Part shown: piece after piece, positions 80 to 41,775 of the stretch
Layout of the letters: every line of letters starts with the position of its first letter
Numbering within the stretch: position 1 is the first letter of the stretch
Virus record (IMG/VR): IMGVR_UViG_3300029893_000022
Span: 1 to 41,911 of that record
DNA: 41,911 bases
Source of the DNA: a virus
Strand: one strand, 5' to 3'
Notes under the pieces: generated by a model
The model's database searches: none
What the model was told of the DNA's origin: nothing
The model's input: the letters and a program-made list of their open reading frames with translations, nothing else
Translations under genes and position numbers: made by a program

Positions 80-598
80 ATCGGGCAGGTTGCAGGCTGC
101 CCGATACAGCCACTCTGGGTCGCCGGTGGCGATCAGAGCCTCGACCAGCCGCGGATCATAACGGCTATCAGGTAGATCGTAGGTCGCCATGAATAGCAGC
201 CGGGCTTCGCCAGTGGCGATCAGTGCCTCGACCAGGCGCGGATCGTAGCGGTCATCGGGCAGGTTGCAGGCTGCCCGATACAGCCACTCTGGGTCGCCGG
301 TGGCGATCAGAGCCTCGACCAGCCGCGGATCATAGCGGCTGTTGGGCAAGTTACGGGCTGCCCGATACAGATACTCTGGGTCGCCAGAGGCGATCAGAGC
401 CTCGACCAGCCGCGGATCATAACGGCTATCAGGTAGATCGTAGGTCGCCATGAACAGCCATTCTGGGTCGCCGCTGGCGATCAGAGCCTCGACCAGCCGC
501 GGATCGTAGTGGCTGTCGGGCAGATCGTGAGTCGCCGTGAATAGCAGCCAGGCTTCGCCGGAAGCAATTAACTTATCTATATCATCATCAGTATTCAT
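1..598 (-). CDS. tandem-repeat protein (about 27-aa repeats YDPRLVEALIAxGDPExLYRAAxNLPxxR), 3-prime end runs off window start
   Basis: Minus-strand ATG at 598-596 gives MNTDDDIDKLIASGEAW... then seven or more 27-aa repeats; open to position 1. The listed plus-strand ORF 223..453 is the antisense shadow. Paralogous to 41152..41775. Confidence 0.6.
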   Translation of the reverse strand, partial: MNTDDDIDKLIASGEAWLLFTATHDLPDSHYDPRLVEALIASGDPEWLFMATYDLPDSRYDPRLVEALIASGDPEYLYRAARNLPNSRYDPRLVEALIATGDPEWLYRAACNLPDDRYDPRLVEALIATGEARLLFMATYDLPDSRYDPRLVEALIATGDPEWLYRAACNLPDDRYDPRLIEALIAIGDPEYLYRAARN

Positions 599-687
599 GA
601 TTCTCTCTCCATTTGCCTAAAGTATAACACACGTATTACACACAATCAATATGTTTAGATTAGAAATAGATTAGAAAAGGTATGTAC

Positions 688-715
688 TTGACCATTCCTG
701 TTTGTGTGTTAAAAT
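688..715 (+). promoter_or_regulatory. putative sigma70-like promoter for the lysis genes
   Basis: TTGACC (688-693), 16-bp spacer, TGtTAAAAT extended -10 (707-715), in the divergent intergenic region 599-731 just upstream of the ATG at 732. Confidence 0.3.
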
Positions 716-731
716 TGGGCTGGAGGTGATT

Positions 732-1028
732 ATGGATGCAGAGACTTTATCCATGCTGGCCGGGGCTGTTCTATCCCTGGCGTTTTCCTATGTGCCGGGA
801 TTATCATCCTGGTATGATCCCTTAGCCGCCGAGTACAAGCGCCTGGTGATGCTCGGCTTGTTGGTGCTTGTAGCAGGGGCGGCCTTTGCCCTGGCATGTG
901 CAGGCCTGGCGGCAGACCTGGGGCTGGCGTTGACCTGTGACCGGCAAAACGCAGTGGGGTTGGTGCGTGCGCTGGTGCTGGCAATCGCCGCCAACCAGGG
1001 CGTTTTCAAACTTACCCGCAAGCCATAG
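732..1028 (+). CDS. holin-like small membrane protein
   Basis: ATG at 732 preceded by GGAGGTGA; 98 aa with two to three hydrophobic helices; directly upstream of the endolysin gene. Confidence 0.45.
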   Translation: MDAETLSMLAGAVLSLAFSYVPGLSSWYDPLAAEYKRLVMLGLLVLVAGAAFALACAGLAADLGLALTCDRQNAVGLVRALVLAIAANQGVFKLTRKP

Positions 1029-1361
1029 ATGGATGTTGATAGCTGGGTCGCGATTATTATCGCTTTGATTGGCGCGGCAGCCGGCATTGGTGGTCTGATC
1101 CGCCAGGCTCTGCGCGATAAGCCAGACATTGCAGCACAGTATGAGCAGATGGCGGAGCGCCAGGCCATGAAAATACAACAGATGCAGGCGCGCATAGACG
1201 CGCTGACAGGTGAAATCGAAGAGCTGAAGCAGGCTCTCGAAGAGCGAGATCGGTTGATCCAGGCATGGCAGGCTGGGATCAGGATGCTAATTGACCAACT
1301 AACGGCAAATGAAATCATCCCAGTCTGGATGCCGAAAGAGAAAGCGGACAAGACAAAATGA
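1029..1361 (+). CDS. membrane-anchored coiled-coil protein (possible lysis accessory or spanin-like)
   Basis: N-terminal hydrophobic segment WVAIIIALIGAAAGIGGLI followed by a charged helical region (EIEELKQALEERDRLIQ); stop overlaps the next start (ATGA). Confidence 0.5.
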   Translation: MDVDSWVAIIIALIGAAAGIGGLIRQALRDKPDIAAQYEQMAERQAMKIQQMQARIDALTGEIEELKQALEERDRLIQAWQAGIRMLIDQLTANEIIPVWMPKEKADKTK

Positions 1362-2020
1362 TCTATCCTGTCCCGAAAGATAGCATCATCACGCAGACCT
1401 ATCAGGATCATGTAGAGCGTGCAAAACGCAATGGATGGTGCTATCGTCCCGGAAGATGTCCTGGTGGCGTGTGGTACTATGGCGGCATAGACTGGGCAGT
1501 AGTGACCGGCACGCCGGTACAGGCTGCCGAATCCGGTTTGGTTGTTACCGCCCGCCAGGATGCCACAGGCTATGGCACGCACATAAAGATCAACCACGAA
1601 GACGGACGGGAAACAATCTACGCCCATCTATCGGAGCTTCGAATCCAGGCTGGCGATAGGGTAATCGCCGGTCAAGTTATTGGGCTATCAGGAAATACAG
1701 GTAATTCAACCGGCCCTCATCTACACTTCGAATTGCGAGTAAACGGGATACCGGTTGATCCAATGCCATATTTGACAGGTGAAATCCAGGCTGGCGATAA
1801 TGATAATACCCCGGAAAAGCCGGCCTGGAAGGAAATAAAACCTGGAGACATAGTCACCATTGCCAGCCCCTATCGGATACGCGCCGCGCCGGGAACCACG
1901 GCGCGCATCCTGGCGACCATTGCCAACTCTACCCAGGCTGAGGTCATCAGCCTGGATAACACAGGCTGGGCAGAGGTCATCATCAGGGGCTGGGTTCACC
2001 CCGACGGTTTGATTAAATAA
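1358..2020 (+). CDS. peptidase M23 (LytM-type) endolysin
   Basis: Motifs HIKINHEDGRETIYAHL and NTGNSTGPHLHFELR match the HxxxD and HxH zinc-binding signature of M23 peptidases; C-terminal extra domain of about 70 aa. Confidence 0.75.
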   Translation: MIYPVPKDSIITQTYQDHVERAKRNGWCYRPGRCPGGVWYYGGIDWAVVTGTPVQAAESGLVVTARQDATGYGTHIKINHEDGRETIYAHLSELRIQAGDRVIAGQVIGLSGNTGNSTGPHLHFELRVNGIPVDPMPYLTGEIQAGDNDNTPEKPAWKEIKPGDIVTIASPYRIRAAPGTTARILATIANSTQAEVISLDNTGWAEVIIRGWVHPDGLIK

Positions 2021-2023
2021 GCG

Positions 2024-2051
2024 CCCGGTGCGACAGAGATGTCGCACCGGG
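2024..2051. terminator. stem-loop terminator between convergent genes
   Basis: CCCGGTGCGAC-agagat-GTCGCACCGGG, 11-bp perfect stem; on the minus strand it is followed by TTATTTAAT. Lies between the endolysin stop (2020) and the minus-strand small ORF stop (2066). Confidence 0.4.
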
Positions 2052-2065
2052 CTTGCTGGTCGGCA

Positions 2066-2188
2066 CTATTTCGCACTGAGGATGGCGATTAACACCGCCG
2101 CCCCCAGCACGATGGCCGCCATAAGATTGAATGGCGGCGTAACCATCAGATAGGCTGCCACAGGGGCGGCCAAAAGTAACAGTTTCAT
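2066..2188 (-). CDS. small hydrophobic peptide (40 aa)
   Basis: Not in the ORF track (under 60 aa). AAGGAGAAtgaaATG RBS; MKLLLLAAPVAAYLMVTPPFNLMAAIVLGAAVLIAILSAK, almost entirely hydrophobic; last cistron of a minus-strand operon. Confidence 0.4.
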   Translation of the reverse strand: MKLLLLAAPVAAYLMVTPPFNLMAAIVLGAAVLIAILSAK

Positions 2189-2415
2189 TTCATTCTCCTT
2201 GCCCGCTTTACCCCGCGGGCTGGGGTGATCCTACCGGCGATTCCGATTCCACCCATCGCCACTGTGCCGTCCTGGCGCGGGCGTGTGGTGGCGGTTACCA
2301 TCCCTCACGCCTTATTTGGGATGGCCCATGAGCGCCGCGGCAGCATACACTCTGCCGCACCGGGCTTTCACCGGTCGCCCACCCGTGAGGGTGGGCGGGC
2401 CTTGCGGGCGGGGGG
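2189..2415 (-). ncRNA. candidate structured intercistronic RNA element, copy 1
   Basis: GC-rich segment starting right after the stop of gene 2416..2790; about 85 nt are 85% identical to copy 2 (2791..2929). Minus-strand hairpins CGCCCACCC-ucac-GGGUGGGCG (plus 2376-2397) and GCGGCAG-aguguaug-CUGCCGC (plus 2337-2358), plus further hairpins toward the small ORF. Confidence 0.35.
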
Positions 2416-2790
2416 CTAGTCCTCAGGAGGCAACAGCCCCTCCGCTTTTGCCCTTTCACGGGTCATATAGACCTCGTGAGCAGCGAAATTAATTCGCTCT
2501 TTTTTGTCCGGTCTCCCGGACAAGCCTTCGAAGAATTTCTGAGTTGGCTTTTTGGGGAAGTAGTTATTCCCCAGACCCAACTCATTTTTTAAGTTTTTCG
2601 AAGTTATCACCCGCACCGGATACGGGACGTTTGCCAGACCCGCCTGCGAAGAACAGAACTTACAAACGTGAACATACGTCTGAGACTCATTGTCCCAGGC
2701 CTCGTTGTTTGTCTCATCTCTGCACATTGTGCAGGGGGCCCATGTCCAGCCCCCCCTGTCATCATACTTTCTCACCCATTCGGCCTTCAC
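2416..2790 (-). CDS. Cys-rich (zinc-ribbon-like) hypothetical protein
   Basis: Likely GTG start at 2790 with AGGAGA 5 nt upstream (the longer listed ORF 2416..3006 runs through copy 2 of the RNA element); 124 aa with C-x2-C ... C-x2-C (CTMC, CKFC). Confidence 0.5.
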   Translation of the reverse strand: MKAEWVRKYDDRGGWTWAPCTMCRDETNNEAWDNESQTYVHVCKFCSSQAGLANVPYPVRVITSKNLKNELGLGNNYFPKKPTQKFFEGLSGRPDKKERINFAAHEVYMTRERAKAEGLLPPED

Positions 2791-2929
2791 TTTGTTCTCC
2801 TGCCCGCCTATGACCCGACGGGCGGGGTCTAGTGATTGATTGCCCATGAGCGCCGCGGCATCTCTGCCGCACCGGACTTCCACCGGTCGCCCACTCCGAG
2901 AGCGGGCGGGCCTTGCGGACTGGGAGGGG
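2791..2929 (-). ncRNA. candidate structured intercistronic RNA element, copy 2
   Basis: Starts right after the stop of gene 2930..3148. Same three-hairpin core as copy 1; the first stem carries compensatory changes (CGCCCGCUC/GAGUGGGCG with a G-U pair, plus 2888-2908) and the second keeps the stem with a GAGA tetraloop (plus 2855-2870). Confidence 0.35.
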
Positions 2930-3148
2930 CTACACAGGCTCGAAGAGCAACTCCCGTTCCCCCTCCACTGTTCCCCAGAAGCGACCGTTTGTCGCCTCGT
3001 CAACAACGATTTTTCCGACCGTCGGGTCGTACTCGATCATCATCTCAACAATTTCCCCCAGCCTGCCTACCTCCAGATACCCCCCCCAACGGGGGGTAAG
3101 GATTCTAACCATCCGCTCGTCATTTTCATAGTCCTTAATAGTAGTCAT
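2930..3148 (-). CDS. hypothetical protein (72 aa)
   Basis: GGAGGAGAcagaaATG RBS; first cistron of the minus-strand small-gene operon. Confidence 0.5.
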   Translation of the reverse strand: MTTIKDYENDERMVRILTPRWGGYLEVGRLGEIVEMMIEYDPTVGKIVVDEATNGRFWGTVEGERELLFEPV

Positions 3149-3212
3149 TTCTGTCTCCTCCCGGCCTTTTCCCCGACCGGTGGGGGGTTAGGTTGGTTGA
3201 CTGACTGTCTAT

Positions 3213-3240
3213 AGTGTAACACGTGTAGTACGAATGTCAA
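3213..3240 (-). promoter_or_regulatory. putative promoter of the minus-strand small-gene operon
   Basis: Minus-strand TTGACA (plus 3235-3240), 16-bp spacer, TACACT (plus 3213-3218), about 60 nt upstream of the start at 3148. Confidence 0.3.
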
Positions 3241-3404
3241 GCTGGTTTATGGAACATTAATCAAACTCTAATCTTTCTCGCTGGTATAATCCAACCGTGA
3301 TTACCGATGCCTGCTACTACCTGTACCTAGCCTGGTGTCTCTCCTGGCTCTATGTCCTGGCTCTGCATGCCGGTTTATGACGCGCCGCGTCATAGACCAC
3401 TCCA

Positions 3405-3466
3405 CTGTACATGTAGTGTATAATTGCACACATTTGTGCTATAATAAATGGCACAAATGTGCCATT
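3405..3466 (+). promoter_or_regulatory. promoter with overlapping palindromic operator-like sites
   Basis: TATAAT at 3419-3424 and TGcTATAAT at 3437-3445; inverted repeats TACATGTA (3408-3415), GCACA-catt-TGTGC (3426-3439) and TGGCACA-aa-TGTGCCA (3449-3464) end 2 nt before the ATG at 3467. Confidence 0.35.
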
Positions 3467-3976
3467 ATGACCGATAACAGTAACAGCAACAGCCTGCTCG
3501 CAAACGATCCTAACGAGCTACAGCGCATCCTACAGTCTCTCAGCATGCTACAACTGCGCTGGTTGATCGCGCGAACAGAGGTTGATACCGACAAGGAAGC
3601 CTGCGAGCGGATCGGTATCGCCTATCACAGCTGCATGCGCTGGCCTAACAGGAACGACATCCATCGGGCATTGCGCCTGATGATGTACGACAAACTGGAC
3701 GCAGCGCGTGAGCTGCTCAAACGGTCTGTGGTCGAGGCAGTGGAGGAGCTGCGCCGTGAGCTGGACGATCCATCACCGCGGATACGCCAGCGTGCAGCCA
3801 TCGAGATACTGGATCGGACGATGGGGCGTGCAGTCCAGCCGTCCATCATGATAACTGCCGGTGTGGATGACCTGTTACGTCGGATATGGGGCGACGACGG
3901 CGAGCCAGCACCTGGGCCGGCTGGGGATGTGATAGATGGAGAGATGACGGATGCGCCGGTGTCTGATGATGGTTAA
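3467..3976 (+). CDS. HTH DNA-binding protein (terminase small subunit-like or transcriptional regulator)
   Basis: Start taken at ATG 3467 because the longer listed ORF from 3335 runs through the promoter and operators. HTH-like segment DKEACERIGIAYHSCMRW; later IRQRAAIEILDRTMG resembles the conserved C-terminal helix of P27-type small terminases; acidic tail. No obvious RBS. Confidence 0.5.
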   Translation: MTDNSNSNSLLANDPNELQRILQSLSMLQLRWLIARTEVDTDKEACERIGIAYHSCMRWPNRNDIHRALRLMMYDKLDAARELLKRSVVEAVEELRRELDDPSPRIRQRAAIEILDRTMGRAVQPSIMITAGVDDLLRRIWGDDGEPAPGPAGDVIDGEMTDAPVSDDG

Positions 3977-3979
3977 GAT

Positions 3980-4766
3980 AAGGTCGCTTATCGCGAGCGT
4001 AATGTTTTGAGGTTTTGTAGGTGATCGCAACGCATATTGACATACCCCCACATCTGGGGGTATGTCGCGTTATATGGGGGTTGCATCCAGTAGTTGGTGG
4101 TGTATCAGTAGATGCCGGAGTGTATCAGATGTATCAAGATGCCGGCTGATTGTATCAGTGTATCATTGGATTGTATCATTGTATCAACCCGTACATGTGG
4201 GTGGTAGTGTCTCGTACGGTGTACATACCCCCATATATAGGGGTATTGAGAAGCAATAAATTGTATCAGTGTATCATCTATCTATCATAGGTTAAGCAAC
4301 CAAGGCAACCAAGGCAACCAAGGCAACCAGAGCAACCCCTATATATAGCCATCAATGCCGTATATGGATACTACCCCCCATATATGGGGGTATAATAATT
4401 GATGATTTTTAATCTTCAATTAATGATTAAGCAACCTTTTTAAGCAACCTTAAGCAACCTGTAATGTATCTATATAATACTTGTACAATACCTAAACATT
4501 GATTATATGTATGTATAGGTTGCTTAAGTTGCCTTGGTTGCTTAAGTTGCCTTGGTTGCTCTGGTTGCTTAACCTCGTAAGCTTTAATATTTCATAACCA
4601 TACCAGTATATCAATCACTATTGCATTTTAGGGCTACTTTATGCCATTTTAGGGGTGTTTTAAGCCAAAAAATGCCCTAAATGGGCATCTCAGATTGTTT
4701 CCGGGCCGGCCAGGTCAGCCCGAAAAGGTGTCGAGGTTAAGCAACCAAGGCAACCGGTGCAACCTT
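3980..4766. repeat. iteron-rich AT-rich noncoding region (candidate replication origin or packaging/partition site)
   Basis: TGTATCA repeats (4101-4187, 4261-4277); C/G-tract palindromes (4043-4062, 4225-4246, 4372-4392); GCAACCAAG tandem repeats (4296-4337) with an inverted array (4518-4573); TAAGCAACC x3 (4428-4460); AT-rich core (about 4393-4430); GCAACC cluster at 4738-4764. Confidence 0.5.
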
Positions 4767-4768
4767 AT

Positions 4769-5053
4769 TTATTGATCGTACCGGTGCATGATTTCGAGAA
4801 ACTGTTCTACACTGTACACAATCGCTGCAGGTGTATCATCCCCAAACTGCGACCACAACGCCAGCTCTCTTTCGGTCAGCTTGCCCCCAGGCGACTTGAT
4901 CTCCAGTGCCACCCAGCGGCCAGACCTGGACAAACAAAACGCATCCGGCGCACCATCCCCCTGACGATACGTGTCTACCCATACATAGCCGGCCCGCCGT
5001 GCTGCATCCCGTATCGCTGCGTGGTTAGCGTCTACACGTGCGCTGTATCTCAT
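4769..5053 (-). CDS. VRR-NUC domain nuclease
   Basis: GAPDAFCLSRSGRWVALEIKSPGGKLTERELALW matches the PD-(D/E)xK core of VRR-NUC (G.PD ... ALEIK ... GKLT..E..W); GAGGA RBS; start overlaps the upstream stop (ATGA). Confidence 0.6.
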   Translation of the reverse strand: MRYSARVDANHAAIRDAARRAGYVWVDTYRQGDGAPDAFCLSRSGRWVALEIKSPGGKLTERELALWSQFGDDTPAAIVYSVEQFLEIMHRYDQ

Positions 5054-5454
5054 CTGTCCTCATCTTGTCCATTGATCGGGAGCAAGTTTTTGGCAATTCT
5101 CAGCATCGAGCGTAAGTGATATTCGTTTTCGCAACTAAGCAAGAAGCGCCTCGCCTGCTTCTTCTTGTCGGCATCGGCGATGCCTAGCGCCAGGCGCTGC
5201 CGCTCGCGGATGGCTTCCAATGCCAGACGCTCGACCTCGCCATCGGCGTCCGGCGTCCAGATCGGCGGACGCCAGATGAGCCATTGGCGCAGGTCATGCC
5301 GGTAAGCCACACGACCTGCAAAACGCTCGGCGAAGAATTCAGCGTTGCCCGCATCTGTTAGCGCGAAGTCGTCGGCGGCGCTGGTTTCTTCTATCGGAAC
5401 AACCCCAGAGCAGTTGACGGCAATAGTTTCAATAGGGGGAGTTGTTGATACCAC
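5050..5454 (-). CDS. primase/helicase N-terminal-domain-like protein (possible gene fragment)
   Basis: FALTDAGNAEFFAERFAGRVAYRHDLRQWLIWRPPIWTPD matches the TDxGNAxRF ... W.W.G..W N-terminal motif of phage D5/P4-type primase-helicases, but the ORF is only 134 aa, starts at GTG with no RBS and has no polymerase or helicase motifs. Confidence 0.4.
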   Translation of the reverse strand: MVSTTPPIETIAVNCSGVVPIEETSAADDFALTDAGNAEFFAERFAGRVAYRHDLRQWLIWRPPIWTPDADGEVERLALEAIRERQRLALGIADADKKKQARRFLLSCENEYHLRSMLRIAKNLLPINGQDEDR

Positions 5455-6014
5455 CGGTGAGTATATGATTATGGAGCGCGGCTTTGGAGCTGATTAATTC
5501 ATCTCCGAGTGTGCGCATGATTCTTGCCCGGGGTCGAAAAAATCCTTCACCAATTGTCTGATTTTGATCGCTCATTTGACATCATCTCGTTGGATAAGTA
5601 TTTTATCTGGTTTTGGAACCAAATATCGGATCCGGCACATGCACGCCCAGCTCGTTGCGGATGTACTTAAGGACTCCTGGCGCGTGCTTGCCTGGCGTTC
5701 ATCTGTCCATTTTCTGCCCATAATAAACGGCTTTGTAGAGAAAATCGTTGAACAACCGACAGATTTGAAGCCAGTTCTGGTCATGGTTTGGGGTGATCTG
5801 ATAGTTGCCGTTAATCGCCGGGATTTTTTGCATGAGCAATCCTGGTAGTGGAGATATGCCCCTGGCGTGTATCCTTCAGGACGTTGGGGATAACTGTCAG
5901 CAGATATAATCGGTGATCAATGATACGAGGTAGGTGTATCATATATGCAACAATCTTCCTGGATTATGAGACAGTTTTATTGTATACACATTGCATAAGA
6001 GCCTGTTGCATAAC

Positions 6015-6227
6015 CTATCTGGGCAATACATATCGGTACCCCCGTTTTTCTCCTTCAGGGATAAGCCAGCCGCTGGCAACCAGATTACGGGCGATATGAA
6101 GAGCAGTGTGTCTTTTAACGCGGAGAATCCGGCGAATATCTCGATTGGTGATAAATCCTTGAGTTTTGATTTCCTCCAGCAGGCATTCACACGCTCTGCT
6201 CGCGGTAGCAGCCAGCGTTTTCGCCAC
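6015..6227 (-). CDS. small winged-helix DNA-binding protein (putative)
   Basis: ITNRDIRRILRVKRHTALHIARNLVASGWL is HTH-like; GTG start with weak RBS. The overlapping listed ORF 5939..6460 looks less protein-like. Confidence 0.35.
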   Translation of the reverse strand: MAKTLAATASRACECLLEEIKTQGFITNRDIRRILRVKRHTALHIARNLVASGWLIPEGEKRGYRYVLPR

Positions 6228-6275
6228 CAGGCGACCAGTTCCGAGAATGGCAAGTTGCGATAGACTCGTTCAGTA

Positions 6276-6524
6276 TCACGGCCTTCCATGTACGTTTCCA
6301 GATTGTTCACCAGGCGAAACAGGAATACTTCTCGCTTCACACCATGACGAAGCAATTCGGATGAAAATCTTAATTGGTTCAGCACTCGAACCATTGTTTG
6401 CCATTTCCGGCGCGGTCGCCGCTGCAGTGCTGGCGGACTGGGAGGTCTGACGGCAAGCAAAAGCGAACCAAAACAGAGCAGCGAACATCACGGCAATCAG
6501 GATCAGGACAATCCAGCGCTTCAT
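6276..6524 (-). CDS. small membrane or lipoprotein-like protein
   Basis: ATG at 6524 overlaps the upstream stop (ATGA) and uses GGAGGA from the upstream gene end; MKRWIVLILIAVMFAALFWFAFAC is a signal/TM segment ending in Cys. Confidence 0.4.
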   Translation of the reverse strand: MKRWIVLILIAVMFAALFWFAFACRQTSQSASTAAATAPEMANNGSSAEPIKIFIRIASSWCEARSIPVSPGEQSGNVHGRP

Positions 6525-7123
6525 GGCCGTCCTCCGTTGGAACCCTGGCAATACCCGCAGGAGCAGGCAGGGCGTTGACCGGTCTTAACGGCGGCAACCA
6601 GTCGGTCGAGCTTGGCGTTGATCTTCTCGGCGACGGTATCGCTGTGAGAAACGCCGATAACGCGCATCTCGCCGGTGTCGCGCGCCAGATATAGCACATG
6701 GGCGCGCTGGTATCCGGCGAAGTGCATATACGCCTGCACCTGAAAGAAGACGCGGTTAGGCAGTCGGGGCGGTTCAGGGAGCCATTTGGCGCATTCGATG
6801 GTCTTTATCTCTAACAAATCTCCTTCCACCTCGCCATCGGGATGTCCCTGCACCAGACCATCGTACAAAACGATCGGATTCGCTGCGCGATAAAGACCCA
6901 TCTCGATCAGACGAGCGACGAGCGCCTCTTCCAGAGCATACCCCATTGCATCTTTCAGGCGCTCCCGGGTGCTGTGAGGAACCCCGTGTGTGTAAATGTC
7001 GTAGATGACTCGTTCACACCCGCCGATAGATGACAGACCGATATAGTTACGACGTTCTTGGTGGCGGCTGCTCACGCGTGATGTGAAGTCAATAATAGCG
7101 GACTGCAATTGGATAGATAGCAT
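6521..7123 (-). CDS. Cas4-like PD-(D/E)xK nuclease with Cys cluster
   Basis: AAGGAGC RBS; DGEVEGDLLEIKT (D ... E.K); one N-terminal Cys (GGCER) plus C-terminal CSCGYC, the pattern of Fe-S-containing Cas4/RecB-family nucleases. Confidence 0.55.
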   Translation of the reverse strand: MLSIQLQSAIIDFTSRVSSRHQERRNYIGLSSIGGCERVIYDIYTHGVPHSTRERLKDAMGYALEEALVARLIEMGLYRAANPIVLYDGLVQGHPDGEVEGDLLEIKTIECAKWLPEPPRLPNRVFFQVQAYMHFAGYQRAHVLYLARDTGEMRVIGVSHSDTVAEKINAKLDRLVAAVKTGQRPACSCGYCQGSNGGRP

Positions 7124-7135
7124 ATAGAAGCTCCT

Positions 7136-7279
7136 TTACAGGTCGAAAGCCAAATCTATGGCGTGAAGATGGAGTTTGGAGAACAGCGCACGGCGTTGGG
7201 TGGGTTCATCCCGCTTGCGTTTAATATGTCCCCAGTTGCGTACCGGCAACTCCCGCCGGCAACGACTACATGTTTTCAT
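7136..7279 (-). CDS. small basic Cys-containing peptide (47 aa)
   Basis: Not in the ORF track. ATG at 7279 overlaps the methyltransferase stop (ATGA); MKTCSRCRRELPVRNWGHIKRKRDEPTQRR...; lies just downstream of repeat copy R1, whose start codon is ACG instead of ATG. Confidence 0.35.
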   Translation of the reverse strand: MKTCSRCRRELPVRNWGHIKRKRDEPTQRRALFSKLHLHAIDLAFDL

Positions 7280-8001: not shown

Positions 8002-8022
8002 CTATGGCATCCTGTGGCACAT
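7983..8022 (-). repeat. conserved gene-start module, copy R2 (contains the methyltransferase start)
   Basis: gcctctcgttccagctcatctatggcatcctgtggcacat; minus strand reads cacAGGAtgccatagATGAGCTGGAACGAGAG, encoding MSWNER. Confidence 0.8.
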
Positions 8023-8062
8023 TTGCTCGCGCCTATCACTCAGCTTGAGTTCCATTCAGCAA

Positions 8063-8660: not shown

Positions 8661-8663
8661 CTG

Positions 8664-9011: not shown

Positions 9012-9186
9012 ATCCTGTTATTCCTCTTCTTCGCTGCCGTCAAACAACGACATCTGCTTCACATGCCCGTCCAATGGCAAACAGTGTGGGCTAAACCACA
9101 ATCGTTCTTTGGTGCGGTTCTCGCTATTTGCTGTCTTGCCATTGCTGTTGCCATAGGAACGCCCGGCAGTCCAGGAGTTTTATAAT

Positions 9187-10728: not shown

Positions 10729-10747
10729 GCCCTCTCCCTTCGAAAAA

Positions 10748-10789: not shown

Positions 10790-10857
10790 AGGATAATTGT
10801 GTTATTATATATTGGTAGGGGGTAATTGGTCTGGTTGGTTGCTCTCTCTCCTGAGGC

Positions 10858-10883: not shown

Positions 10884-10908
10884 TGCCGTTAATTTAAGTG
10901 ATTACCAT

Positions 10909-32884: not shown

Positions 32885-32890
32885 TAGAAA

Positions 32891-33244: not shown

Positions 33245-33245
33245 G

Positions 33246-34516: not shown

Positions 34517-34761
34517 ACATTGAAGATGCAATGCAAGAAATCTATCACGCCTTTTCGCATGATAGATTAGATGAGGATGAATTCACAGTACGCATGTATG
34601 CCGAATTACACGGCATTCCATATCAGACGGCTAACAATCATCTATTGAAGGCATTAATGGCGGGGAAGTTGACCCGCCGCTATGCGATCCACGGCGGGAG
34701 GCAATGTTGGGCTTACCGTGTTGTTCGCGATGCCGAACACACAGATCGCACAGACAAATGA
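34498..34761 (+). CDS. hypothetical protein
   Basis: 87-aa ORF at the end of the plus-strand block. Confidence 0.45.
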   Translation: MEVENLNIEDAMQEIYHAFSHDRLDEDEFTVRMYAELHGIPYQTANNHLLKALMAGKLTRRYAIHGGRQCWAYRVVRDAEHTDRTDK

Positions 34762-35059
34762 GACCTGGGTCTTCGTAGCGGTGTGGCTCGCGCCGACCGC
34801 TACGATAGCACCAGGTTTCGATAATATCCCCTTTCTTGATGCGAATGAGGGGATGAGTGGAGAGGGGTTTGTAATCGTCAGTTGAGATCATAGGTAATGA
34901 AGTCAAAATCTTCCCGTGGCAAGGTATTTTCGAAGAGTGTCTTGTCCGTATAATATACCACGCGATCTGGCAGAAGCGAGGGATAGGTATTCTCCATCTT
35001 CTGATAGTAGAAGATATGTTGATGATAGTTGAACAGGATCAGTTGAATGTAATTCATAG

Positions 35060-35610
35060 GTCGCTCATTGTATATGGGTTACTAATTGACATGGCTTGCA
35101 CGGAGTTTTTGGGTTACTTCCATCGCTTAGCTCGCTTCTCTGTAATGGGTTACTTTGTTAGCTTGGCTCGCTTACGCTAGATGGGTTACTCCTCTCGAAT
35201 GGCTCGCTTCGTTCCGTTGGGTTACTTGCTGTGCTTGGCTCGCTTCTGCGACATGGGTCACTCAACTCATATGGCTCACTTCCTCAGTTTGGGTTACTCA
35301 CTGAGCTTGGCTCGCTTGTATATCATGGGTTACTCCTTGAGACTGGCTCGCTTGGGTAGCATGGGTTACTCATAATCGGTGGCTCGCTTCATCACCCTGG
35401 GTTACTCGCCAGCAATGGCTCGCTTACCCACTTTGGGTTACTTGCTTCGCTTGGCTCGCTTTCTTTTGATGGGTTACTTCACCCTCTTGGCTCGCTTTCT
35501 TAGCTTGGGTTACTTGCCGAGTTTGGCTCGCTTGTATATCATGGGTTACTCACTAACACTGGCTCGCTTCCGTCTTCTGGGTTACTCCGCGGTAATGGCT
35601 CGATTGGGCT
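35060..35610. repeat. tandem array A of a 36-bp dimeric repeat (18-bp half-units TGGGTTACT+N9 and TGGCTCGCTT+N8), about 15 units
   Basis: Read directly: the two cores alternate with strict 18-bp spacing; variable segments are pyrimidine-rich on the plus strand; downstream (3-prime) of minus-strand gene 35619..36311. Confidence 0.85.
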
Positions 35611-35618
35611 TGCCGAAA

Positions 35619-36311
35619 TTATATCTCATCATACCACCCAAACTCTTCCGGCGTATATAGGCGATGATGATTGTTCTCTGCCACAATCCAGGGATCGCTA
35701 ACAGGCAATCCCTCTAACTTGCGCCATACCAGCCACAGGTGCGATAACCACACTTTTATCATCTTGCGCATGGCGGCGTTATGCTTGTGCAGCTTTGTCC
35801 AATCTTCGCGGCTTTCGTACTCCTCGCGCGCCTTGTCGTAAATGTCGCGATAGGGACTGCCGGAGCGCAGGAAGGATGAACCGATCAAATAGCAGGTTGT
35901 CTTGAGGCGAATGTTGTAATGGAGTTTCTCGCCCTTGACCGGCTTCTCGCGTTCTCCGTTGATGACGGCATAACCTGCATACCGCCAAAGGGCGCTGATG
36001 GTATCGGCGCGGTGGATGTCAATCATCACCACCGTTTTCAGAGCAAGTGTCTTTCCGACGCCTCTCACGCGGCACATATATTCCACAATCGGAAAATCAT
36101 CCGCCAAATCTTTGATGGATGAATCCAGCTCATCTTCCAACAACTGGAATTTGGTCATCCACTGCTCGATATAATGGCGGTACGTTGGATTATCAGTACC
36201 GCGGTCTATTGCGGACAGGCGATTGCTGAATTGAATGCGTGCTTTCTGGATGATTCGGTCTCGCAGATCAACCAACGCACGGGCTAAAACTGAAATAGAT
36301 GGGTCTGTCAT
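35619..36311 (-). CDS. IS110-family recombinase C-terminal domain-like protein (coiled coil plus helix-hairpin-helix), lacking the N-terminal DEDD catalytic domain
   Basis: AAGGAGAG RBS and ATG at 36311; VRGVGKTLALKTVVMIDIHRADTISALWRYAGYAV and HNAAMRKMIKVWLSHLWLVWRK resemble the conserved C-terminal (Transposase_20-type) region of IS110/IS116/IS902 proteins; only 230 aa; no DEDD motifs. Confidence 0.6.
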   Translation of the reverse strand: MTDPSISVLARALVDLRDRIIQKARIQFSNRLSAIDRGTDNPTYRHYIEQWMTKFQLLEDELDSSIKDLADDFPIVEYMCRVRGVGKTLALKTVVMIDIHRADTISALWRYAGYAVINGEREKPVKGEKLHYNIRLKTTCYLIGSSFLRSGSPYRDIYDKAREEYESREDWTKLHKHNAAMRKMIKVWLSHLWLVWRKLEGLPVSDPWIVAENNHHRLYTPEEFGWYDEI

Positions 36312-36361
36312 GATATTCTCTCCTTATATAGTATGTATGGTAACGCTTACTGATCTTAGGT

Positions 36362-37215
36362 TTGCTTCCCAATTCCGGCTCGCTCTCAACGAATGGACTG
36401 CTCTTCCTTAATGGCTCGCTCTTTTTATCTGGGTTTCTGCATCGAAATAGCTCGCTCCTCTCGTCTGGATTGATTGTTCATTGTGGCTCGCTTATGCTCC
36501 ATGGGTTACTTTTCGATCCTGGCTCGCTTTCCGTCTCTGGGTTACTTAGAGATGCTGGCTCGCTTGCGCGGGATGGGTTACTCACGTTGCCTGGCTCGCT
36601 TCATTATCCTGGGTTACTTGACCTTTGTGGCTCGCTTACTTGGTTTTGGTTACTCGTCAATTATGGCTCGCTTCTCGCATATGGGTTACTCCGTTATTCT
36701 GGCTCGCTTGCGCAGGTTGGGTTACTCACTGCGTATGGCTCGCTTACTTGCCATGGGTTACTCACCGCGTCTGGCTCGCTTGCATATCCTGGGTTACTCC
36801 TGAACTTTGGCTCGCTTCAGCATCGTGGGTTACTCTCCGCGTCTGGCTCGATTGCAGTAGTTGGGTTGCTTTTACAGTTCGGCTCGCTTCCCGCACGTGG
36901 GTTATGGGTTACTCATCTTCAGTGGCTCGCTTTCGGTTTCTGGGTTACTTTCGCCTACTGGCTCGCTTTCTGACTCTGGATTACTTGTATGCAATGGCTC
37001 GCTTACACATCGTGGGTTACTCTCCGTGTCTGGCTCGCTTGCATATCATGGGTTACTCCTAAACAATGAATGGCTCGCTTGCGCGGGATGGATTACTCAC
37101 GTTGCCTGGCTCGCTTCTCCAGCTTGGGTTACTCAAGTTGCCTGGCTCGCTTCGTCATCATGGGTTACTTTTCAAGGGTGGCTCGCTTTATTCATTCAGA
37201 ATGGCTCTTCCATTC
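36362..37215. repeat. tandem array B of the same 36-bp dimeric repeat, about 23 units
   Basis: Same cores and orientation as array A; includes segmental duplications (for example GGCTCGCTTGCGCGGGATGGgTTACTCACGTTGCCTGGCTCGCTT at about 36563 and 37071); upstream (5-prime) of gene 35619..36311. Confidence 0.85.
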
Positions 37216-37410
37216 CTCGCGCGGATCAATACCGAGTTCACGACAGATATAGATGGCTTCATCGCGCAATATCTTGTTGGACTCCACCTGATCTGACAGG
37301 AATTCGAACGCTGCATCTTTGCCATGACGACGCATCTTATTAATCGCCGTCTGACGCGCTATGACAAAAGGCATGTAAGACAATGGAATGTCGTCCATCT
37401 TATCCTCCAT
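37192..37410 (-). CDS. hypothetical protein
   Basis: 72-aa ORF; an internal ATG at 37398 is preceded by GGAGGA. Confidence 0.4.
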   Translation of the reverse strand: MEDKMDDIPLSYMPFVIARQTAINKMRRHGKDAAFEFLSDQVESNKILRDEAIYICRELGIDPREEWKSHSE

Positions 37411-37485
37411 ACATCCAGGTCAATATGATTCCGATCAATGCCATCAGCACCAGGGCTTCCAACAGGACAAGAACCGCTCCGAGTT

Positions 37486-37974
37486 TCATTGCTGCACCTC
37501 TTGGCTGAAAGCCTCCGGCGGCAATGCACCAACCGGAAGCAACATCAACCCAACCAGCGGCACGGTAGCATTGGCAGCGGAGCGCAACGCAGCCTGAACG
37601 GCAGGAACACTTCCCATCACTTCTTGCCATCCGTGCGCCTTGAGTTCGGCAGCGATCTCCCCCATCGTCTTTGGCAAGACATAATTACCCTTGCCACCGG
37701 TCAGGCGATAGAAAAGCGCAATCGGATCGCCGACGTTGCAGTCGAGACAGGCAAAGCCGAACCCATCTGCAACGCGCCAGACGACAAGAGTTAGATTGTC
37801 TTTCCACAGGACGGCAGTTCCGGGGGCGGCGTTGAGTGCCGCCCGGATGCCTTCACGTGTGGCAGCCGGCTGGAGGGGTACGATCTGCCCCTCGGCGATT
37901 GGCGCTCCAGCGCAGGCCGCAAGATTGAACGCCAACCAGATCAAGATCATGTGTTCGAACAATTTGCGATACAT
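37486..37974 (-). CDS. lipoprotein (putative)
   Basis: Start taken at ATG 37974 with AAAGGAGATAACG RBS (the listed ORF extends to 38109); signal peptide with lipobox-like LAAC. Confidence 0.5.
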   Translation of the reverse strand: MYRKLFEHMILIWLAFNLAACAGAPIAEGQIVPLQPAATREGIRAALNAAPGTAVLWKDNLTLVVWRVADGFGFACLDCNVGDPIALFYRLTGGKGNYVLPKTMGEIAAELKAHGWQEVMGSVPAVQAALRSAANATVPLVGLMLLPVGALPPEAFSQEVQQ

Positions 37975-37987
37975 CGTTATCTCCTTT

Positions 37988-38326
37988 CTATGGATAGGGT
38001 GGATATGGATATGGGGTAGATATTGGCGGATATGGTTCTGGAGTTTCCGTCGGTGTTGCCGGATAGTAAGGGTCTGGGAGCATAGGTGTTGCCGTGGCCG
38101 GTTCATCAATGTTCAACGGAGCGCAATTCAGATATACCTTTCTGGTAATGCGCAGCTTCTTAGATAGCGTCAGGTTGCAAGTGTACCAACCTGGTTGCGG
38201 AGTGCCGTAGATCACTTCGCCTTTTATCATCACGCCCTCAATCTCGGCATGAGCCAGGCCTTGTTGGATAGTCAGCAGCAAGACGGCCAACAATGTTATT
38301 CCGGTTGCAAATTGAAATTTACTCAT
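37988..38326 (-). CDS. secreted protein with Pro/Tyr-rich C-terminus
   Basis: GAAAGGAGAA RBS; signal peptide MSKFQFATGITLLAVLLLTIQQGLAHA; C-terminal PYPYPPYP tract. Confidence 0.5.
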   Translation of the reverse strand: MSKFQFATGITLLAVLLLTIQQGLAHAEIEGVMIKGEVIYGTPQPGWYTCNLTLSKKLRITRKVYLNCAPLNIDEPATATPMLPDPYYPATPTETPEPYPPISTPYPYPPYP

Positions 38327-38556
38327 CTGGTTCTCCTTTCGTTGAGATGTGATCCAAGTTTTATCAGCAGCTCTACTGCGCCGCAGACACCCAGGCCACG
38401 CACCTGGTTGGTCAATAGATTGATCTGCTTGATGATCTTCTGTCTTTCTGATTCGCTCAAATTATCAAAACGATCCAGGTAATATCCACTATCTTCTAAA
38501 CTGGACGTTGATAATTCTTTGCGAATACGATACTCGGTGATGATGTAATCTACCAT
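38323..38556 (-). CDS. hypothetical protein
   Basis: 77-aa ORF overlapping its neighbours by a few nt. Confidence 0.45.
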   Translation of the reverse strand: MVDYIITEYRIRKELSTSSLEDSGYYLDRFDNLSESERQKIIKQINLLTNQVRGLGVCGAVELLIKLGSHLNERRTR

Positions 38557-38780
38557 CAGTAAGCCTCTAATCCGAGATAATGAATAATTGTCAAGGCGGC
38601 TTCATCTGCCGAATTACAATAGGCGCAATAGTAATCTTTATGCCCAAAATTTATTTCGGTGTCACTGAGTGCAATGAATAATCCTTGATATTGACCGCGT
38701 GGATAGGGCAGGAAGAACAATAATTCCTTTGATTCCCGCGCAGCCCATTCAAGCAATGCGATCATCTCTTCAATATTCAT
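38556..38780 (-). CDS. hypothetical protein
   Basis: 74-aa ORF. Confidence 0.45.
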   Translation of the reverse strand: MNIEEMIALLEWAARESKELLFFLPYPRGQYQGLFIALSDTEINFGHKDYYCAYCNSADEAALTIIHYLGLEAY

Positions 38781-39298
38781 ATCTCACCACAATCCAAAAC
38801 TTTATAACGGTGTATCACTGCTCCTGCCTCATCCATCTCTACAGGCGATAAATCTTTACCGCGCTGGTCTGGTCTGAGATAAGGCAGATCAATTGACCAC
38901 ACTTCTATTGCAGCAGCCGCGATGGACAGCGGAATATTTCCTATGACAATCCTGCCATCAATTTGAGACACATCTTCTACATGGTCAATGACTTTGCAGG
39001 AGGTATATCCGCGTTGTCGTAGCCACTCAATTGCTCCGGCATGGCGAGAGACAATGATGTAATAATCTGAAGAATGATTCGCCAAAACAAACTGGAGTAC
39101 ATTCTTCTCAATTGCTTCATCCACCAATGCTTCTGGATAACCATCCATAAGCGCATAGTGGCGAGCTTTGTCTTTCCAGCCTTCTTTCTCAAGATCAGAA
39201 AGAGATGGTTCTCGTGAAAGATACCAGGATTCTATGGCAGCCAACCTATAATTGCCTGCATCAACATATTGTTCAATTAGTTTATATGTGTCGTTCAT
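38777..39298 (-). CDS. hypothetical protein (173 aa)
   Basis: AGGAGAAAGA RBS; no family recognised. Confidence 0.5.
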   Translation of the reverse strand: MNDTYKLIEQYVDAGNYRLAAIESWYLSREPSLSDLEKEGWKDKARHYALMDGYPEALVDEAIEKNVLQFVLANHSSDYYIIVSRHAGAIEWLRQRGYTSCKVIDHVEDVSQIDGRIVIGNIPLSIAAAAIEVWSIDLPYLRPDQRGKDLSPVEMDEAGAVIHRYKVLDCGEI

Positions 39299-39479
39299 TC
39301 TTTCTCCTGATCCAATCGTTCAGATGTTCTGGAGCAACAACAGTTTCGAACATCTCTAGCGTGTCATAATAATTGCGGCGCAAGTCTGCTACGATTTCTT
39401 CTGCGGTGGGGCGACAGTACTTCTGGCAAAACTCGCGCCGCGCCGGGGTATCCTTGAAGATGCAATCAGAACAGATCAT
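39282..39479 (-). CDS. small Cys-containing hypothetical protein
   Basis: Start taken at ATG 39479 (MICSDCIFKD...); C-x2-C and CxxxC motifs. Confidence 0.45.
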   Translation of the reverse strand: MICSDCIFKDTPARREFCQKYCRPTAEEIVADLRRNYYDTLEMFETVVAPEHLNDWIRRKNERHI

Positions 39480-39606
39480 GAGCAATGCTCCATATTCCCA
39501 GCCCTACCAGGCATAAGCACGCCCAGATCAGACTAGAAAAGATCGTAGCGTAGATCATGCCACGGAAGAATGGATTGACAGGTGGGATAGGATCGTTGTC
39601 ATCCAT
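39466..39606 (-). CDS. small membrane peptide (46 aa)
   Basis: Not in the ORF track. GGAGGCTATTA-ATG; MDDNDPIPPVNPFFRGMIYATIFSSLIWACLCLVGLGIWSIAHDLF has one TM helix. Confidence 0.35.
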   Translation of the reverse strand: MDDNDPIPPVNPFFRGMIYATIFSSLIWACLCLVGLGIWSIAHDLF

Positions 39607-39728
39607 TAATAGCCTCCAAGCCATGCAACGACGGCATGTAACATTGCCGGATGCGCTTCCAGGAATAGATAGAAGGCATACAACAAGACGAAGAAAGCCG
39701 CAAGTAGGATTGTCTGATGGTCATTCAT
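39606..39728 (-). CDS. small membrane peptide (40 aa)
   Basis: Not in the ORF track. GGAGGAAATATA-ATG; MNDHQTILLAAFFVLLYAFYLFLEAHPAMLHAVVAWLGGY. Confidence 0.35.
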   Translation of the reverse strand: MNDHQTILLAAFFVLLYAFYLFLEAHPAMLHAVVAWLGGY

Positions 39729-40876
39729 TATATTTCCTCCGGTGGAGGTGAATCGTCCATTAGAAATTGTTGTCCTTCGGCGAGGAGAGCTTCATTGTAT
39801 GCTGCCTGAGCCTCCTTGTAGGCCATTGGATCAGGTTGATAATCGCCGCCGCTATCCTGAGTTGGTTTGAGCCAATCCAGCGCGGCCAGGATCATAGGAT
39901 CGGGAACATCCTTCATGCTGTCCTGACCGAACACATACCTTTGAAAGGTATGGCGTTTGTCATCGTCCTGGAAAATCTTATCCAGGAGCATTGCTACCAG
40001 GCCGCGTTGCTTATTGGATGCCGTCTTTTCCTTGTATTTTCCGGCTTTGATGGCGATGGCTTCCACCAATGCGGCGGGGGGGAGTGGGCGTTCAAATTTG
40101 CCGGGCTTGGGTTTCGGTGCCGATGTCTCGAAGCCGAGTTCTTGCATGATTTCATTTTCGCTTCGTCTTTCGGCTTCGGCGAATGCAACATCCACAGATG
40201 GAGCATCTATGAATTCTCCCTCGATCTCCTTCTCGGCCTGTTCTATAATGGATGCGTCATTTGGGTCGAGGTATCCCCAACGCATGATGAGGAGGCGGAG
40301 AACAGTCTTGCGCTCCATCGCCTCCGGGTCTTTACGCCAGATGCTCTGTTCATTGGAATAGTTGTTCGGATTATATCTCTTGGCGTGGGCATGGATTTGT
40401 TCGACGGTCATGTAAAGGGTTTTTCTGAACCCATTGACCATCTCGAAGGCGCCCAGCCATCCGATCACCTTGTCGCCTGTGCGCGAACCGCCGATCGTGT
40501 GCAATCCGGTGATGCGATCTTCGATCACTTCTTCCCCCTCGTAAATCTTACCGACATTGATATATCGGTACTGGCCGGTTCTGACGGCCATATCGTAAAA
40601 GCCTTTGTATCCAGGCCAGAAAACAGCTTTACCTTTGATCGGAACGATATAGGCCTGTCGTTTCGAGGCATCCACAGACAGACGCAAGGTGGCGGCACGC
40701 ATGGCTGCCACAAAAATTGATTGCGGCGTACACTGTTGGAGCTTACCGGTTGGATCGTTCGCCACGGTAAGCAAAACCGATGAAATGTAGGAGGCGGCGT
40801 TGTCCTTTCCCAGGACTTCTGCGAACTGAGACATCACTGCCTCAGATCGCATATACAACTCAATTTCGTTGCCCAT
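39728..40876 (-). CDS. RecT-like single-strand annealing protein (putative)
   Basis: AAGGAGAG RBS; 382 aa; N-terminal half resembles RecT/Red-beta-type annealing proteins by pattern only; acidic C-terminal tail. Confidence 0.5.
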   Translation of the reverse strand: MGNEIELYMRSEAVMSQFAEVLGKDNAASYISSVLLTVANDPTGKLQQCTPQSIFVAAMRAATLRLSVDASKRQAYIVPIKGKAVFWPGYKGFYDMAVRTGQYRYINVGKIYEGEEVIEDRITGLHTIGGSRTGDKVIGWLGAFEMVNGFRKTLYMTVEQIHAHAKRYNPNNYSNEQSIWRKDPEAMERKTVLRLLIMRWGYLDPNDASIIEQAEKEIEGEFIDAPSVDVAFAEAERRSENEIMQELGFETSAPKPKPGKFERPLPPAALVEAIAIKAGKYKEKTASNKQRGLVAMLLDKIFQDDDKRHTFQRYVFGQDSMKDVPDPMILAALDWLKPTQDSGGDYQPDPMAYKEAQAAYNEALLAEGQQFLMDDSPPPEEI

Positions 40877-41183
40877 TTAATCTCTCCTTTATGATCTTAT
40901 TCTGTTCAACGATATGCGCAATGGTTGCGCAGACTACACACTCATTGCAACTGCACCCGCCGGCTTGATAAGTGCTGCGGGCAAGGATCATATTTTTGTA
41001 GGCTTGCTGCCAGACTTCACGCCAGACGGCAGCCAATTCATTTTCGCCATCCGGCACTGTCGTCCATATATGCAGCGCTTCGGCTTCGATCTCTTCGGCG
41101 CTACGTAGCCATTCTGGACGCCAACGGCGGGCATAATGCCCATCGGCTATATTAGCTTGATCTAAGATTGCCCAATCGTTCAT
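40860..41183 (-). CDS. hypothetical protein
   Basis: 107-aa ORF with a CSCNECVVC motif. Confidence 0.45.
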   Translation of the reverse strand: MNDWAILDQANIADGHYARRWRPEWLRSAEEIEAEALHIWTTVPDGENELAAVWREVWQQAYKNMILARSTYQAGGCSCNECVVCATIAHIVEQNKIIKERLNGQRN

Positions 41184-41775
41184 TCTCTGCCTCTTCCTGC
41201 ATTGCTTTCGCCACTAATAAGCGCAAGTACTGGGACACATTCCCTGGAGACTTGCGTCGCAGAAACTCAATCTGTTCAGTAGTCATCCTTACATTGACTA
41301 TCTGCATCGGTTTATTTTCCATCGTTCCTACCTTATCCAGCCCCACAAATACAGTTTCAGAGAGGAATGATGATGAATGCTGAACATTCTCAATAATAGA
41401 AAGTGTCTCGACCAGCCGCGGATCGCGGCGGCTGTTGGGCAAGTTACGGGCTGCCCGATACAGATACTCTGGGTCGCCGATGGCGATCAGAGCCTCGATC
41501 AGCCGCGGATCGTAGCGGCTGTCGGGTAATTCAATGGCTGCTCGATATAGCCAGATAGCTTTACCAATGGCGATCAACGCCTCTAATAGTCGCTGATCGT
41601 ATCGGTCGTCGGGGAGGTCAACGATAGCCTGGTATATCCAGGTAGCATTACCAGTGCCGATTAGCGCATCCAGTATACGCGGGTCGTATTGGCCATATGG
41701 CAACTCGCGAGCTGCCCAGTATAGCTCCTCGGCGACGCCAGATGCAATTAAGCTATCAATATCAAGGGTGTCCAT
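41152..41775 (-). CDS. tandem-repeat protein (27-aa repeats) with in-frame C-terminal RHH-like segment
   Basis: AGGAGAGG RBS before ATG 41775; five repeats of the YDPRLxEALIAIGxxxxLYRAAxxLPxxRYD type; the last 56 codons (from the internal ATG at 41322, preceded by AGGTAGGA) read MENKPMQIVNVRMTTEQIEFLRRKSPGNVSQYLRLLVAKAM, RHH-like. Confidence 0.6.
   Translation of the reverse strand: MDTLDIDSLIASGVAEELYWAARELPYGQYDPRILDALIGTGNATWIYQAIVDLPDDRYDQRLLEALIAIGKAIWLYRAAIELPDSRYDPRLIEALIAIGDPEYLYRAARNLPNSRRDPRLVETLSIIENVQHSSSFLSETVFVGLDKVGTMENKPMQIVNVRMTTEQIEFLRRKSPGNVSQYLRLLVAKAMQEEAENERLGNLRSS

Follow-up and report, generated by a model that had tools for sequence, protein, structure and literature searches.

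Phages of the headful-packaging types represented by P22 and SPP1 contain circularly permuted, terminally redundant DNA and assemble as circles without fixed ends. Phages with direct terminal repeats yield contigs with identical ends, and completeness tools of the CheckV type apply the rule that a direct terminal repeat denotes a complete genome; circular contigs from a de Bruijn graph show an overlap of their ends as well. In the window that we analyzed (the entire stretch of 41,911 nt of viral DNA), positions 1-79 are identical to positions 41833-41911, and 79 nt was the sole workable length of a terminal overlap when the two ends were compared. Trimming one copy leaves a unit of 41,832 nt. 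The first-pass annotation had pointed out both the end identity and this unit length, and had considered the genome probably complete and circular or circularly permuted; a second contig that reads through the proposed join supports this assessment. We hold with a probability of about 0.82 that the genome is complete at 41,832 nt and assembles as a circle, and that the 79 redundant end bases stem from a cut in a tandem-repeat gene.

An identity over 79 nt would be impossible by chance in random sequence, but not in the array in which it is found here. Seventy-seven of the 79 terminal bases recur at positions 41442-41518 in the neighboring paralogue, and further copies, each with 8-20 mismatches, are present at positions 88, 262, 349, and 436. 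Since the array also holds exact repeats that are longer than the overlap (98 and 91 nt), the end identity, real as it is, proves little on its own about the two ends belonging together; its lack of uniqueness weakens it as lone evidence and does not contradict closure. The additional argument that 41,832 is divisible by three is irrelevant, because the reading frame is kept at every join made through an exact overlap. GC skew tracks gene orientation and is uninformative with respect to the join.

As far as sequence comparison can carry the point, the decisive evidence for closure is the GenBank contig DYGH01000004.1 (41,876 nt), which matches the window without a single mismatch across the 10,760 and 12,745 nt compared (approximately 23.5 kb). 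It spans window positions 139 to 41832 and then continues with positions 1-182, so that the proposed join lies in its interior. Past the base equivalent to 41911, its next 103 nt are exactly those of window positions 80-182, a combination that is present nowhere else in the window. The ends of DYGH01000004.1 themselves overlap by 44 nt (139-182), and its cut is located 138 nt away from that of the window. Both contigs nevertheless give the same unit (41,876 - 44 = 41,911 - 79 = 41,832 nt).

Joining the ends merges two partial minus-strand genes. The one at the 5' end possesses a promoter-like site, a ribosome-binding site and an ATG start codon but no stop codon, while the one at the 3' end has a stop codon but no start codon. 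Together (598..1 plus 41832..41762) they form one open reading frame of 669 nt that encodes 222 amino acids and is closed by a stop codon, just as the earlier proposal of a continuous frame of about 222 codons had it. The same proposal placed the end of this gene just before the ribosome-binding site and start codon of the paralogue (Table 1). In fact, there is a 14-nt overlap between the two genes: the TGA stop codon lies within the paralogue reading frame, which begins with an ATG at 41773-41775, and the AGGAG-type ribosome-binding site of the paralogue is contained in the final codons of the joined gene. The GenBank annotation of DYGH01000004.1 also calls the same partial gene with a 14-nt overlap with the paralogue.

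Closing the circle would restore the 222-aa gene as the first gene of a long minus-strand operon, probably read from the divergent promoter region (599-731). The order of this putative operon would be the joined gene, the paralogue, a 107-aa reading frame and RecT, with a Csx16-domain protein further down. A consensus scan of the intergenic region found two promoter-like sites where 0.9 were expected; one (649-621, minus strand) faces the joined gene and the other (688-715, plus strand) the lysis genes. The 11-nt direct repeat TAGATTAGAAA, detected by TRF, is present there in two copies (656-677).

Table 1. Features of the joined repeat-protein gene and of its surroundings (window coordinates).
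Feature	Coordinates	Strand	Remarks
5' copy of the overlap	1..79	.	Part of repeat units J7 and J6 (joined gene)
Joined gene, N-terminal 199 codons	1..598	-	ATG 596-598; GGAGAG ribosome-binding site 607-612
Tandem array	8..523	-	87-nt (29-aa) units and 261-nt super-period; TRF
98-nt exact repeat	63..160	.	Other copy 237-334
66-nt exact repeat	128..193	.	Other copy 389-454
Divergent intergenic region	599..731	.	Two promoter-like sites and an 11-nt direct repeat
Paralogue, 207 aa	41152..41775	-	Four and a half 29-aa repeats, then a C-terminal beta-alpha-alpha segment
91-nt exact repeat, paralogue unit P4	41428..41518	.	Other copy 41819-41909 (= 41819-41832 + 1-77)
Joined gene, C-terminal end	41762..41832	-	Rest of J7, tail DPRLVKALMKGEEHGHP, TGA 41762-41764
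3' copy of the overlap	41833..41911	.	Redundant; dropped to obtain the 41,832-nt unit

The repeat period, previously given as 81 nt, is 87 nt (29 codons), as is evident from the TRF analysis (period 87, 5.9 copies, 78% matches; period 261, 87% matches) and from the array copies that begin at positions 1, 88, 262, 349, and 436. This register is kept across the join, where unit J7 (70..1 plus 41832..41816) again comprises 87 nt. Exact repeats of 98, 91, 69, and 66 nt are present in and around the gene, and only the two longest exceed 79 nt. Units J4 and J6 are identical (87/87) and lie within the 98-nt repeat. Paralogue unit P4 matches J7 at 84 of 87 positions, whereas P2 and P3 reach just 47-60 of 87 with any unit of the joined gene; the 91-nt tract shared by P4 and J7 resembles the product of a duplication or of gene conversion. 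The 91- and 98-nt repeats are not interleaved but follow each other in the order R2 R2 R1 R1, and hence there is a single path through them, given that each loop is used once.

Each of the two long contigs ends within the array, so that the repeats, not chance, determined the breakpoints; the first-pass annotation was right to caution that the overlap is part of repeat DNA and might be an artefact. The two ends of DYGH01000004.1 (139 and 182) correspond to the exit and entry 55-mers of the 66-nt repeat (193 - 55 + 1 = 139; 128 + 55 - 1 = 182), which suggests that its assembler used k = 55; the 44-nt overlap then fits 2k-L with the 66-nt repeat. For the 79-nt overlap, a k of 77 explains where the contig starts (leaving the 91-nt repeat leads to position 1) but not where it ends, and a plain unitig at k = 79 is incompatible with exact repeats of 91 and 98 nt. 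We found no assembler with a k-mer size of 79 that would also resolve repeats of 91-98 nt. A circle opened by the assembler within the tandem-repeat gene would leave 79 surplus bases at the ends, and the end identity is an ordinary assembly feature.

It is unlikely, yet the most serious of the alternatives, that the circle is right and the repeat number wrong, with extra 29-aa units, or extra 391-nt segments between the 91-nt repeats, collapsed in both assemblies. The exact repeats described above would permit this, every k=31 Logan contig ends at the edge of the array, and the intact 222-aa gene is present in no assembly of the 5.8-billion-protein collection; this leaves two assemblies of short reads as the basis for the repeat number. 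Moreover, related strains differ in the type of unit at the same position (for example L007 unit 2), so the array does change. Against a collapse stands the finding that two contigs whose assembly parameters apparently differed arrive at the same 41,832-nt unit. Common Illumina reads exceed 98 nt, and single reads of such a length could bridge the 98-nt repeat. The runs SRR5011275 and SRR5011273 hold 100% identical sequence, and one set of reads may underlie both long contigs, so that a collapse of extra units (for example of further 174-nt loops) could affect both of them. We infer that the joined gene contains exactly seven repeats.

A related idea, which we consider improbable, is that recombination keeps the locus of the two neighboring repeat genes variable: 87-nt cassettes would move within each paralogue and from one to the other, and the exact tracts of 91 and 98 nt would be the traces of such exchange. 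The type of unit found at a given position would then differ among strains. If this holds, the surface through which the first early protein binds could change rapidly; its target might be, for instance, a host defence or a takeover target. Copy-number heterogeneity in the population, if real, would also account for every assembly breaking at the array.

We regard it as very improbable that the ends are not neighbors at all, and that the window is a linear fragment ending in two repeat-protein genes, or in one gene with intervening sequence, whose end identity reflects repeat homology. Identities among units do occur, as the pairs J4/J6 (87/87) and J7/P4 (91 nt shared exactly) attest, but DYGH01000004.1 extends beyond 41911 with exactly window positions 80-182 and closes to the same length, and the logic of the proposed operon would require the join. 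Although phages with direct terminal repeats likewise yield identical contig ends, it is just as far-fetched to view the 79 nt as the true terminal repeat of a linear virion genome, since the two contigs share no fixed termini (the second ends at 139/182 with its 44-nt overlap elsewhere), the 79 nt lie inside a coding tandem array and mostly recur in the paralogue, and they are short for a phage terminal repeat.

With a complete genome that assembles as a circle as the favored reading, trimming the 79 redundant bases makes the contig usable as a complete phage genome of 41,832 nt; its two end reading frames are best annotated as a single 222-aa gene, with caution as to the repeat number. Beyond its behavior in assembly, we infer that the molecule in cells or virions forms a circle, or else is circularly permuted with terminal redundancy. 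The genome is that of a novel phage: it encodes a large terminase, an SU10-type capsid protein and a lysis cassette with an M23 peptidase, along with AAA_25 helicase, D5_N, RecT, and methyltransferase modules; no integrase match was found among the reading frames scanned. A clear TIGR-Tas locus is present at 35075-37197. Blastn of positions 38000-41911 found no relative among GenBank phages, and RecT had none in IMG/VR and a single one (38% identity, of no use for the join) among JGI metagenome contigs. The exact intergenic 60-mer was absent from GTDB representatives and IMG/VR, the exact 26-mer at the stop/start overlap from JGI metagenome contigs, and a conserved repeat 20-mer from IMG/VR; no mention of the accession numbers was found in the literature. 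Since no close relative is present in GenBank phages, IMG/VR, or GTDB representatives, the complete sequence can usefully serve as a reference. We saw no sign of a new mechanism.

The AlphaFold2 model of the 199-aa part of the joined gene product (pLDDT 95.2) contains 14 helices, two per 29-aa repeat, and for the full protein we predict a solenoid of alpha-helices in which a 29-residue helix-turn-helix unit is repeated seven times. Among these repeats, helix A (DPRLVEALIA) hardly varies, in contrast to helix B and the loop. The 222-aa protein would most likely serve as a binding scaffold early in infection. The C-terminal segment of the paralogue possesses an internal ATG and a ribosome-binding site of its own, and from its model (strand 158-164, helices 166-175 and 180-206; pLDDT only around 60) it may be a ribbon-helix-helix domain. 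Profile support for this identity was lacking: no ribbon-helix-helix family matched in Pfam (E ≤ 5) or NCBIfam (E ≤ 1), nor did a solved ribbon-helix-helix structure (best PDB match, E = 0.93). The repeat protein family is small (217 relatives among 1.84 billion representative proteins) and is not covered by Pfam. The repeat protein had no match in GenBank phages, and no known defence-system family matched the repeat proteins.

We compared the predicted fold with HEAT-like and armadillo-like alpha-solenoids (HEAT_PBS, PF03130; HEAT_2, PF13646; the PP2A A subunit; symplekin; designed helical repeat proteins). As in these, repeated helix-turn-helix hairpins are predicted to form a solenoid; unlike them, the 29-residue unit carries a signature of its own, LP[DN]xRYDPRL[VI]EALIA. 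HEAT_PBS scored 24.5 bits (cut-off 20.9) and RHA1_ro05818_N 32 (cut-off 27), in both cases with no significant single stretch, and HEAT_2 scored 21.1 (cut-off 27.7). No single repeat had a significant Pfam match, the best relatives (P0005-P0011) had no Pfam match at all, and TM-scores to solved structures were just 0.2-0.3. With headful-packaging phages this phage has the circle-like assembly in common; its large terminase matches Terminase_3 and Terminase_6 and is at most 35% identical to that of any GenBank phage. In comparison with typical circular contigs, the overlap is located in a tandem array where 77 of its 79 nt recur, both breaks fall in this array and not at an arbitrary point, and the overlaps of 79 and 44 nt are not simply k. 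Like circular contigs obtained from de Bruijn graphs, the window has an exact direct identity of its ends, a closed unit after trimming, and a second linearization of the same circle.

The window is the complete genome of a phage, assembled as a circle of 41,832 nt and opened within a repeat gene, which supports the first-pass reading of it as complete and circular or circularly permuted. As the first-pass annotation had stated, positions 1-79 equal 41833-41911 exactly, and removal of one copy of this overlap leaves a unit of 41,832 nt; when the window ends were compared, 79 nt was the sole overlap length that worked. Likewise as proposed, 598..1 followed by 41832..41762 on the minus strand form one continuous ORF (669 nt, 222 aa), and the repeat register is preserved over the join, with unit J7 of this joined gene consisting of 70..1 plus 41832..41816 (87 nt). 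Three details had to be revised. The repeat period is 87 nt (29 aa) rather than 81 nt, with TRF periods of 87 and 261 over 8-523 and copies beginning at 1, 88, 262, 349 and 436. The divisibility of 41,832 by three is irrelevant to the reading frame. Finally, the joined gene does not stop ahead of the ribosome-binding site and start of its neighboring paralogue (41152-41775): its TGA (41762-41764) falls within the paralogue ORF (ATG at 41773-41775), an overlap of 14 nt that is also present in the GenBank annotation, and the ribosome-binding site of the paralogue sits within the final codons of the joined gene.

Taken alone, the end identity would amount to no more than repeat homology. After circularization, four exact direct repeats of 66 to 98 nt are present in this region, units J4 and J6 are identical (87/87), and J7 matches the paralogue unit P4 at 84 of 87 positions, so that 77 of the 79 terminal bases are present in the paralogue as well; a 79-nt match between two distinct units would be unremarkable here. 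Only two repeats exceed 79 nt, and since these are not interleaved, there is a single path with each loop (the stretch between exact-repeat copies) used once. The ambiguity left by this analysis is the number of times each loop is used.

Closure is supported by a second contig, DYGH01000004.1 (assembly GCA_020724785.1; 41,876 nt), which was found by exact-protein look-up in GenBank, has the opposite orientation, and reads through the proposed join in its interior. Its first 10,863 nt follow window 31152-41911 with 0 mismatches and then continue for 103 nt that equal window 80-182 exactly, while the final 12,745 nt agree with window 139-12883, again with 0 mismatches. The two ends of the record overlap as well, by 44 nt (window 139-182). 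It is thus the same circle opened at a point 138 nt from the cut in the window, and the unit lengths agree (41,876-44 = 41,911-79 = 41,832). Its ends are the exit and entry 55-mers of the 66-nt repeat 128-193 (193-55+1 = 139; 128+55-1 = 182), which suggests that they arose from a k=55 graph broken at this repeat; no comparable k-mer rule was found for the 79-nt overlap. The end overlap is hence nothing unusual for an assembly; the phage itself is novel, and its DNA could be circular or permuted linear, both being compatible with assembly into a circle.

The repeat number is less certain than closure, because the window contig and DYGH01000004.1, which may share reads, both break inside the array of tandem 87-nt repeats, and no intact copy of the joined protein was present among 5.8 billion proteins, where only four distant relatives matched. 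Logan contigs of SRR5011275 and SRR5011273, which share 100% identity with the window, end at the array edges. One starts at 476; another (33,539 nt), to judge by its length and the single end that was matched, would reach to ~41457, 30 nt inside the 91-nt repeat and matching the expectation for k=31. Contigs of other runs and JGI samples (95-99% identity) likewise stop at the array.

Coordinates of features in the phage genome
Feature	Position	Strand	Remark
98-nt exact direct repeat	63-160 = 237-334		
66-nt exact direct repeat	128-193 = 389-454		
69-nt exact direct repeat	41801-37 = 317-385		
91-nt exact direct repeat	41428-41518 = 41819-41909		
Promoter-like site	649-621	minus	in divergent region 599-731
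Promoter-like site	688-715	plus	in divergent region 599-731
Lysis cassette	732-2020		with M23 peptidase
Large terminase	10909-12345		Terminase_3/6 matches
ORF, 2149 aa	14935-21384	plus	between presumed portal and capsid genes
SU10-type major capsid protein	22156-23304		
TIGR array	35075-35614		about 13 periods of 36 nt
Tas gene, 230 aa	35619-36311	minus	NCBIfam TIGR_Tas_endo match
TIGR array	36485-37197		about 19 periods of 36 nt

That the window is a phage genome is evident from its terminase, capsid and lysis genes, and from AAA_25 helicase, D5_N, methyltransferase and RecT genes; no integrase was matched among the ORFs scanned. No relatives were found in GenBank phages, IMG/VR or GTDB representatives, and the terminase is ≤35% identical to that of any known phage. 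Neither the presumed portal (12342-14045) nor the 2149-aa ORF had a match in Pfam or PHROGs. The joined gene is the first of a minus-strand operon leaving the divergent region, in which an 11-nt direct repeat (TAGATTAGAAA, two copies at 656-677) between the promoter-like sites is a candidate operator. Without the join, the window lacks a start region upstream of the paralogue and the genes that follow it, and carries a 5' partial gene without a stop and a 3' partial gene without a start. A cluster of short tandem and inverted-looking repeats (4149-4667), including GCAACCAAG (4.7 copies) and GGTTGCTTAAGTTGCCTT (2.4 copies), lies in a lower-GC stretch and may be an origin or regulatory region; Logan contig L002 ends inside it, at 4325. 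A strain with 98.7% identity (SRR29054605; contig L011, 10236-11815) has, in place of window ~6415-7973 with the methyltransferase gene (7276-8001) and its neighbors, a swapped accessory cassette that consists of a 120-aa ORF and the gene for a 397-aa protein matching DruA (PF14236).

The joined protein comprises seven 29-residue units followed by a short tail. Among the units, helix A (DPRLVEALIA) hardly varies, and helix B plus loop occurs in three types (WLFMATYDLPDSRY, YLYRAARNLPNSRY and WLYRAACNLPDDRY). Among 1.84 billion representative proteins there were 217 relatives (E≤0.001), the best being long repeat proteins with a similar WPDxRY signature and without a Pfam match. We would guess that it serves as a scaffold for binding and is produced early in infection, and that the paralogue may be anchored to DNA. 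In the paralogue, four and a half units are followed by a beta-alpha-alpha segment that, in a model of low confidence there, resembles a ribbon-helix-helix domain, an identity for which profile searches gave no support. The degenerate fifth repeat of the paralogue (41338-41424) runs directly into this segment (41152-41337), where AAGGTAGGA precedes a separate ATG (MENKPMQ...), so that a small DNA-binding-like protein could also be made from this internal start. P4 matches J3 and J7 at 80-84 of 87 positions, versus 47-60 for P2 and P3 against all J units, an indication that a tract of ~120 nt was recently duplicated or converted. Related strains (L003, L005, L007 and L008; flanks 95-97% identical) differ from the window in the unit types found at given positions of the gene: unit 2 of L007 is of the WLYRAACNLPDDRY type, as opposed to WLFMATYDLPDSRY in the window, and the N-terminal unit differs in L003, L005 and L008. 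The array changes in steps of whole units.

Within the RecT operon, 38777-39298 (minus strand) encodes a 173-aa protein with a Csx16/Cas_VVA1548 domain (Pfam E=5e-17; PADLOC Csx16 E=4e-18), an accessory domain of type III CRISPR systems that, when encoded by a phage, could interfere with cyclic-oligoadenylate signaling. By its sequence, 35075-37197 is a TIGR-Tas locus. Its two arrays share one orientation, flank the 230-aa gene, and strictly alternate 18-nt units (TGGGTTACT plus 9 variable nt and TGGCTCGCTT plus 8 variable nt). A simple tandem-spacer model (≤2 mismatches) found no self-targets of the spacer pairs above chance in the phage's own genome. The 230-aa protein, possibly of the nuclease-less TasA type given its shortness, scored 183.5 bits against NF052498 (cut-off 100) and matched PDB 9mty_A (IS110-type C-terminal domain; E=1.9e-28) and solved TasH chains (E=2.4e-15), and the layout of the locus fits the published definition of TIGR-Tas systems (PMC12045711).
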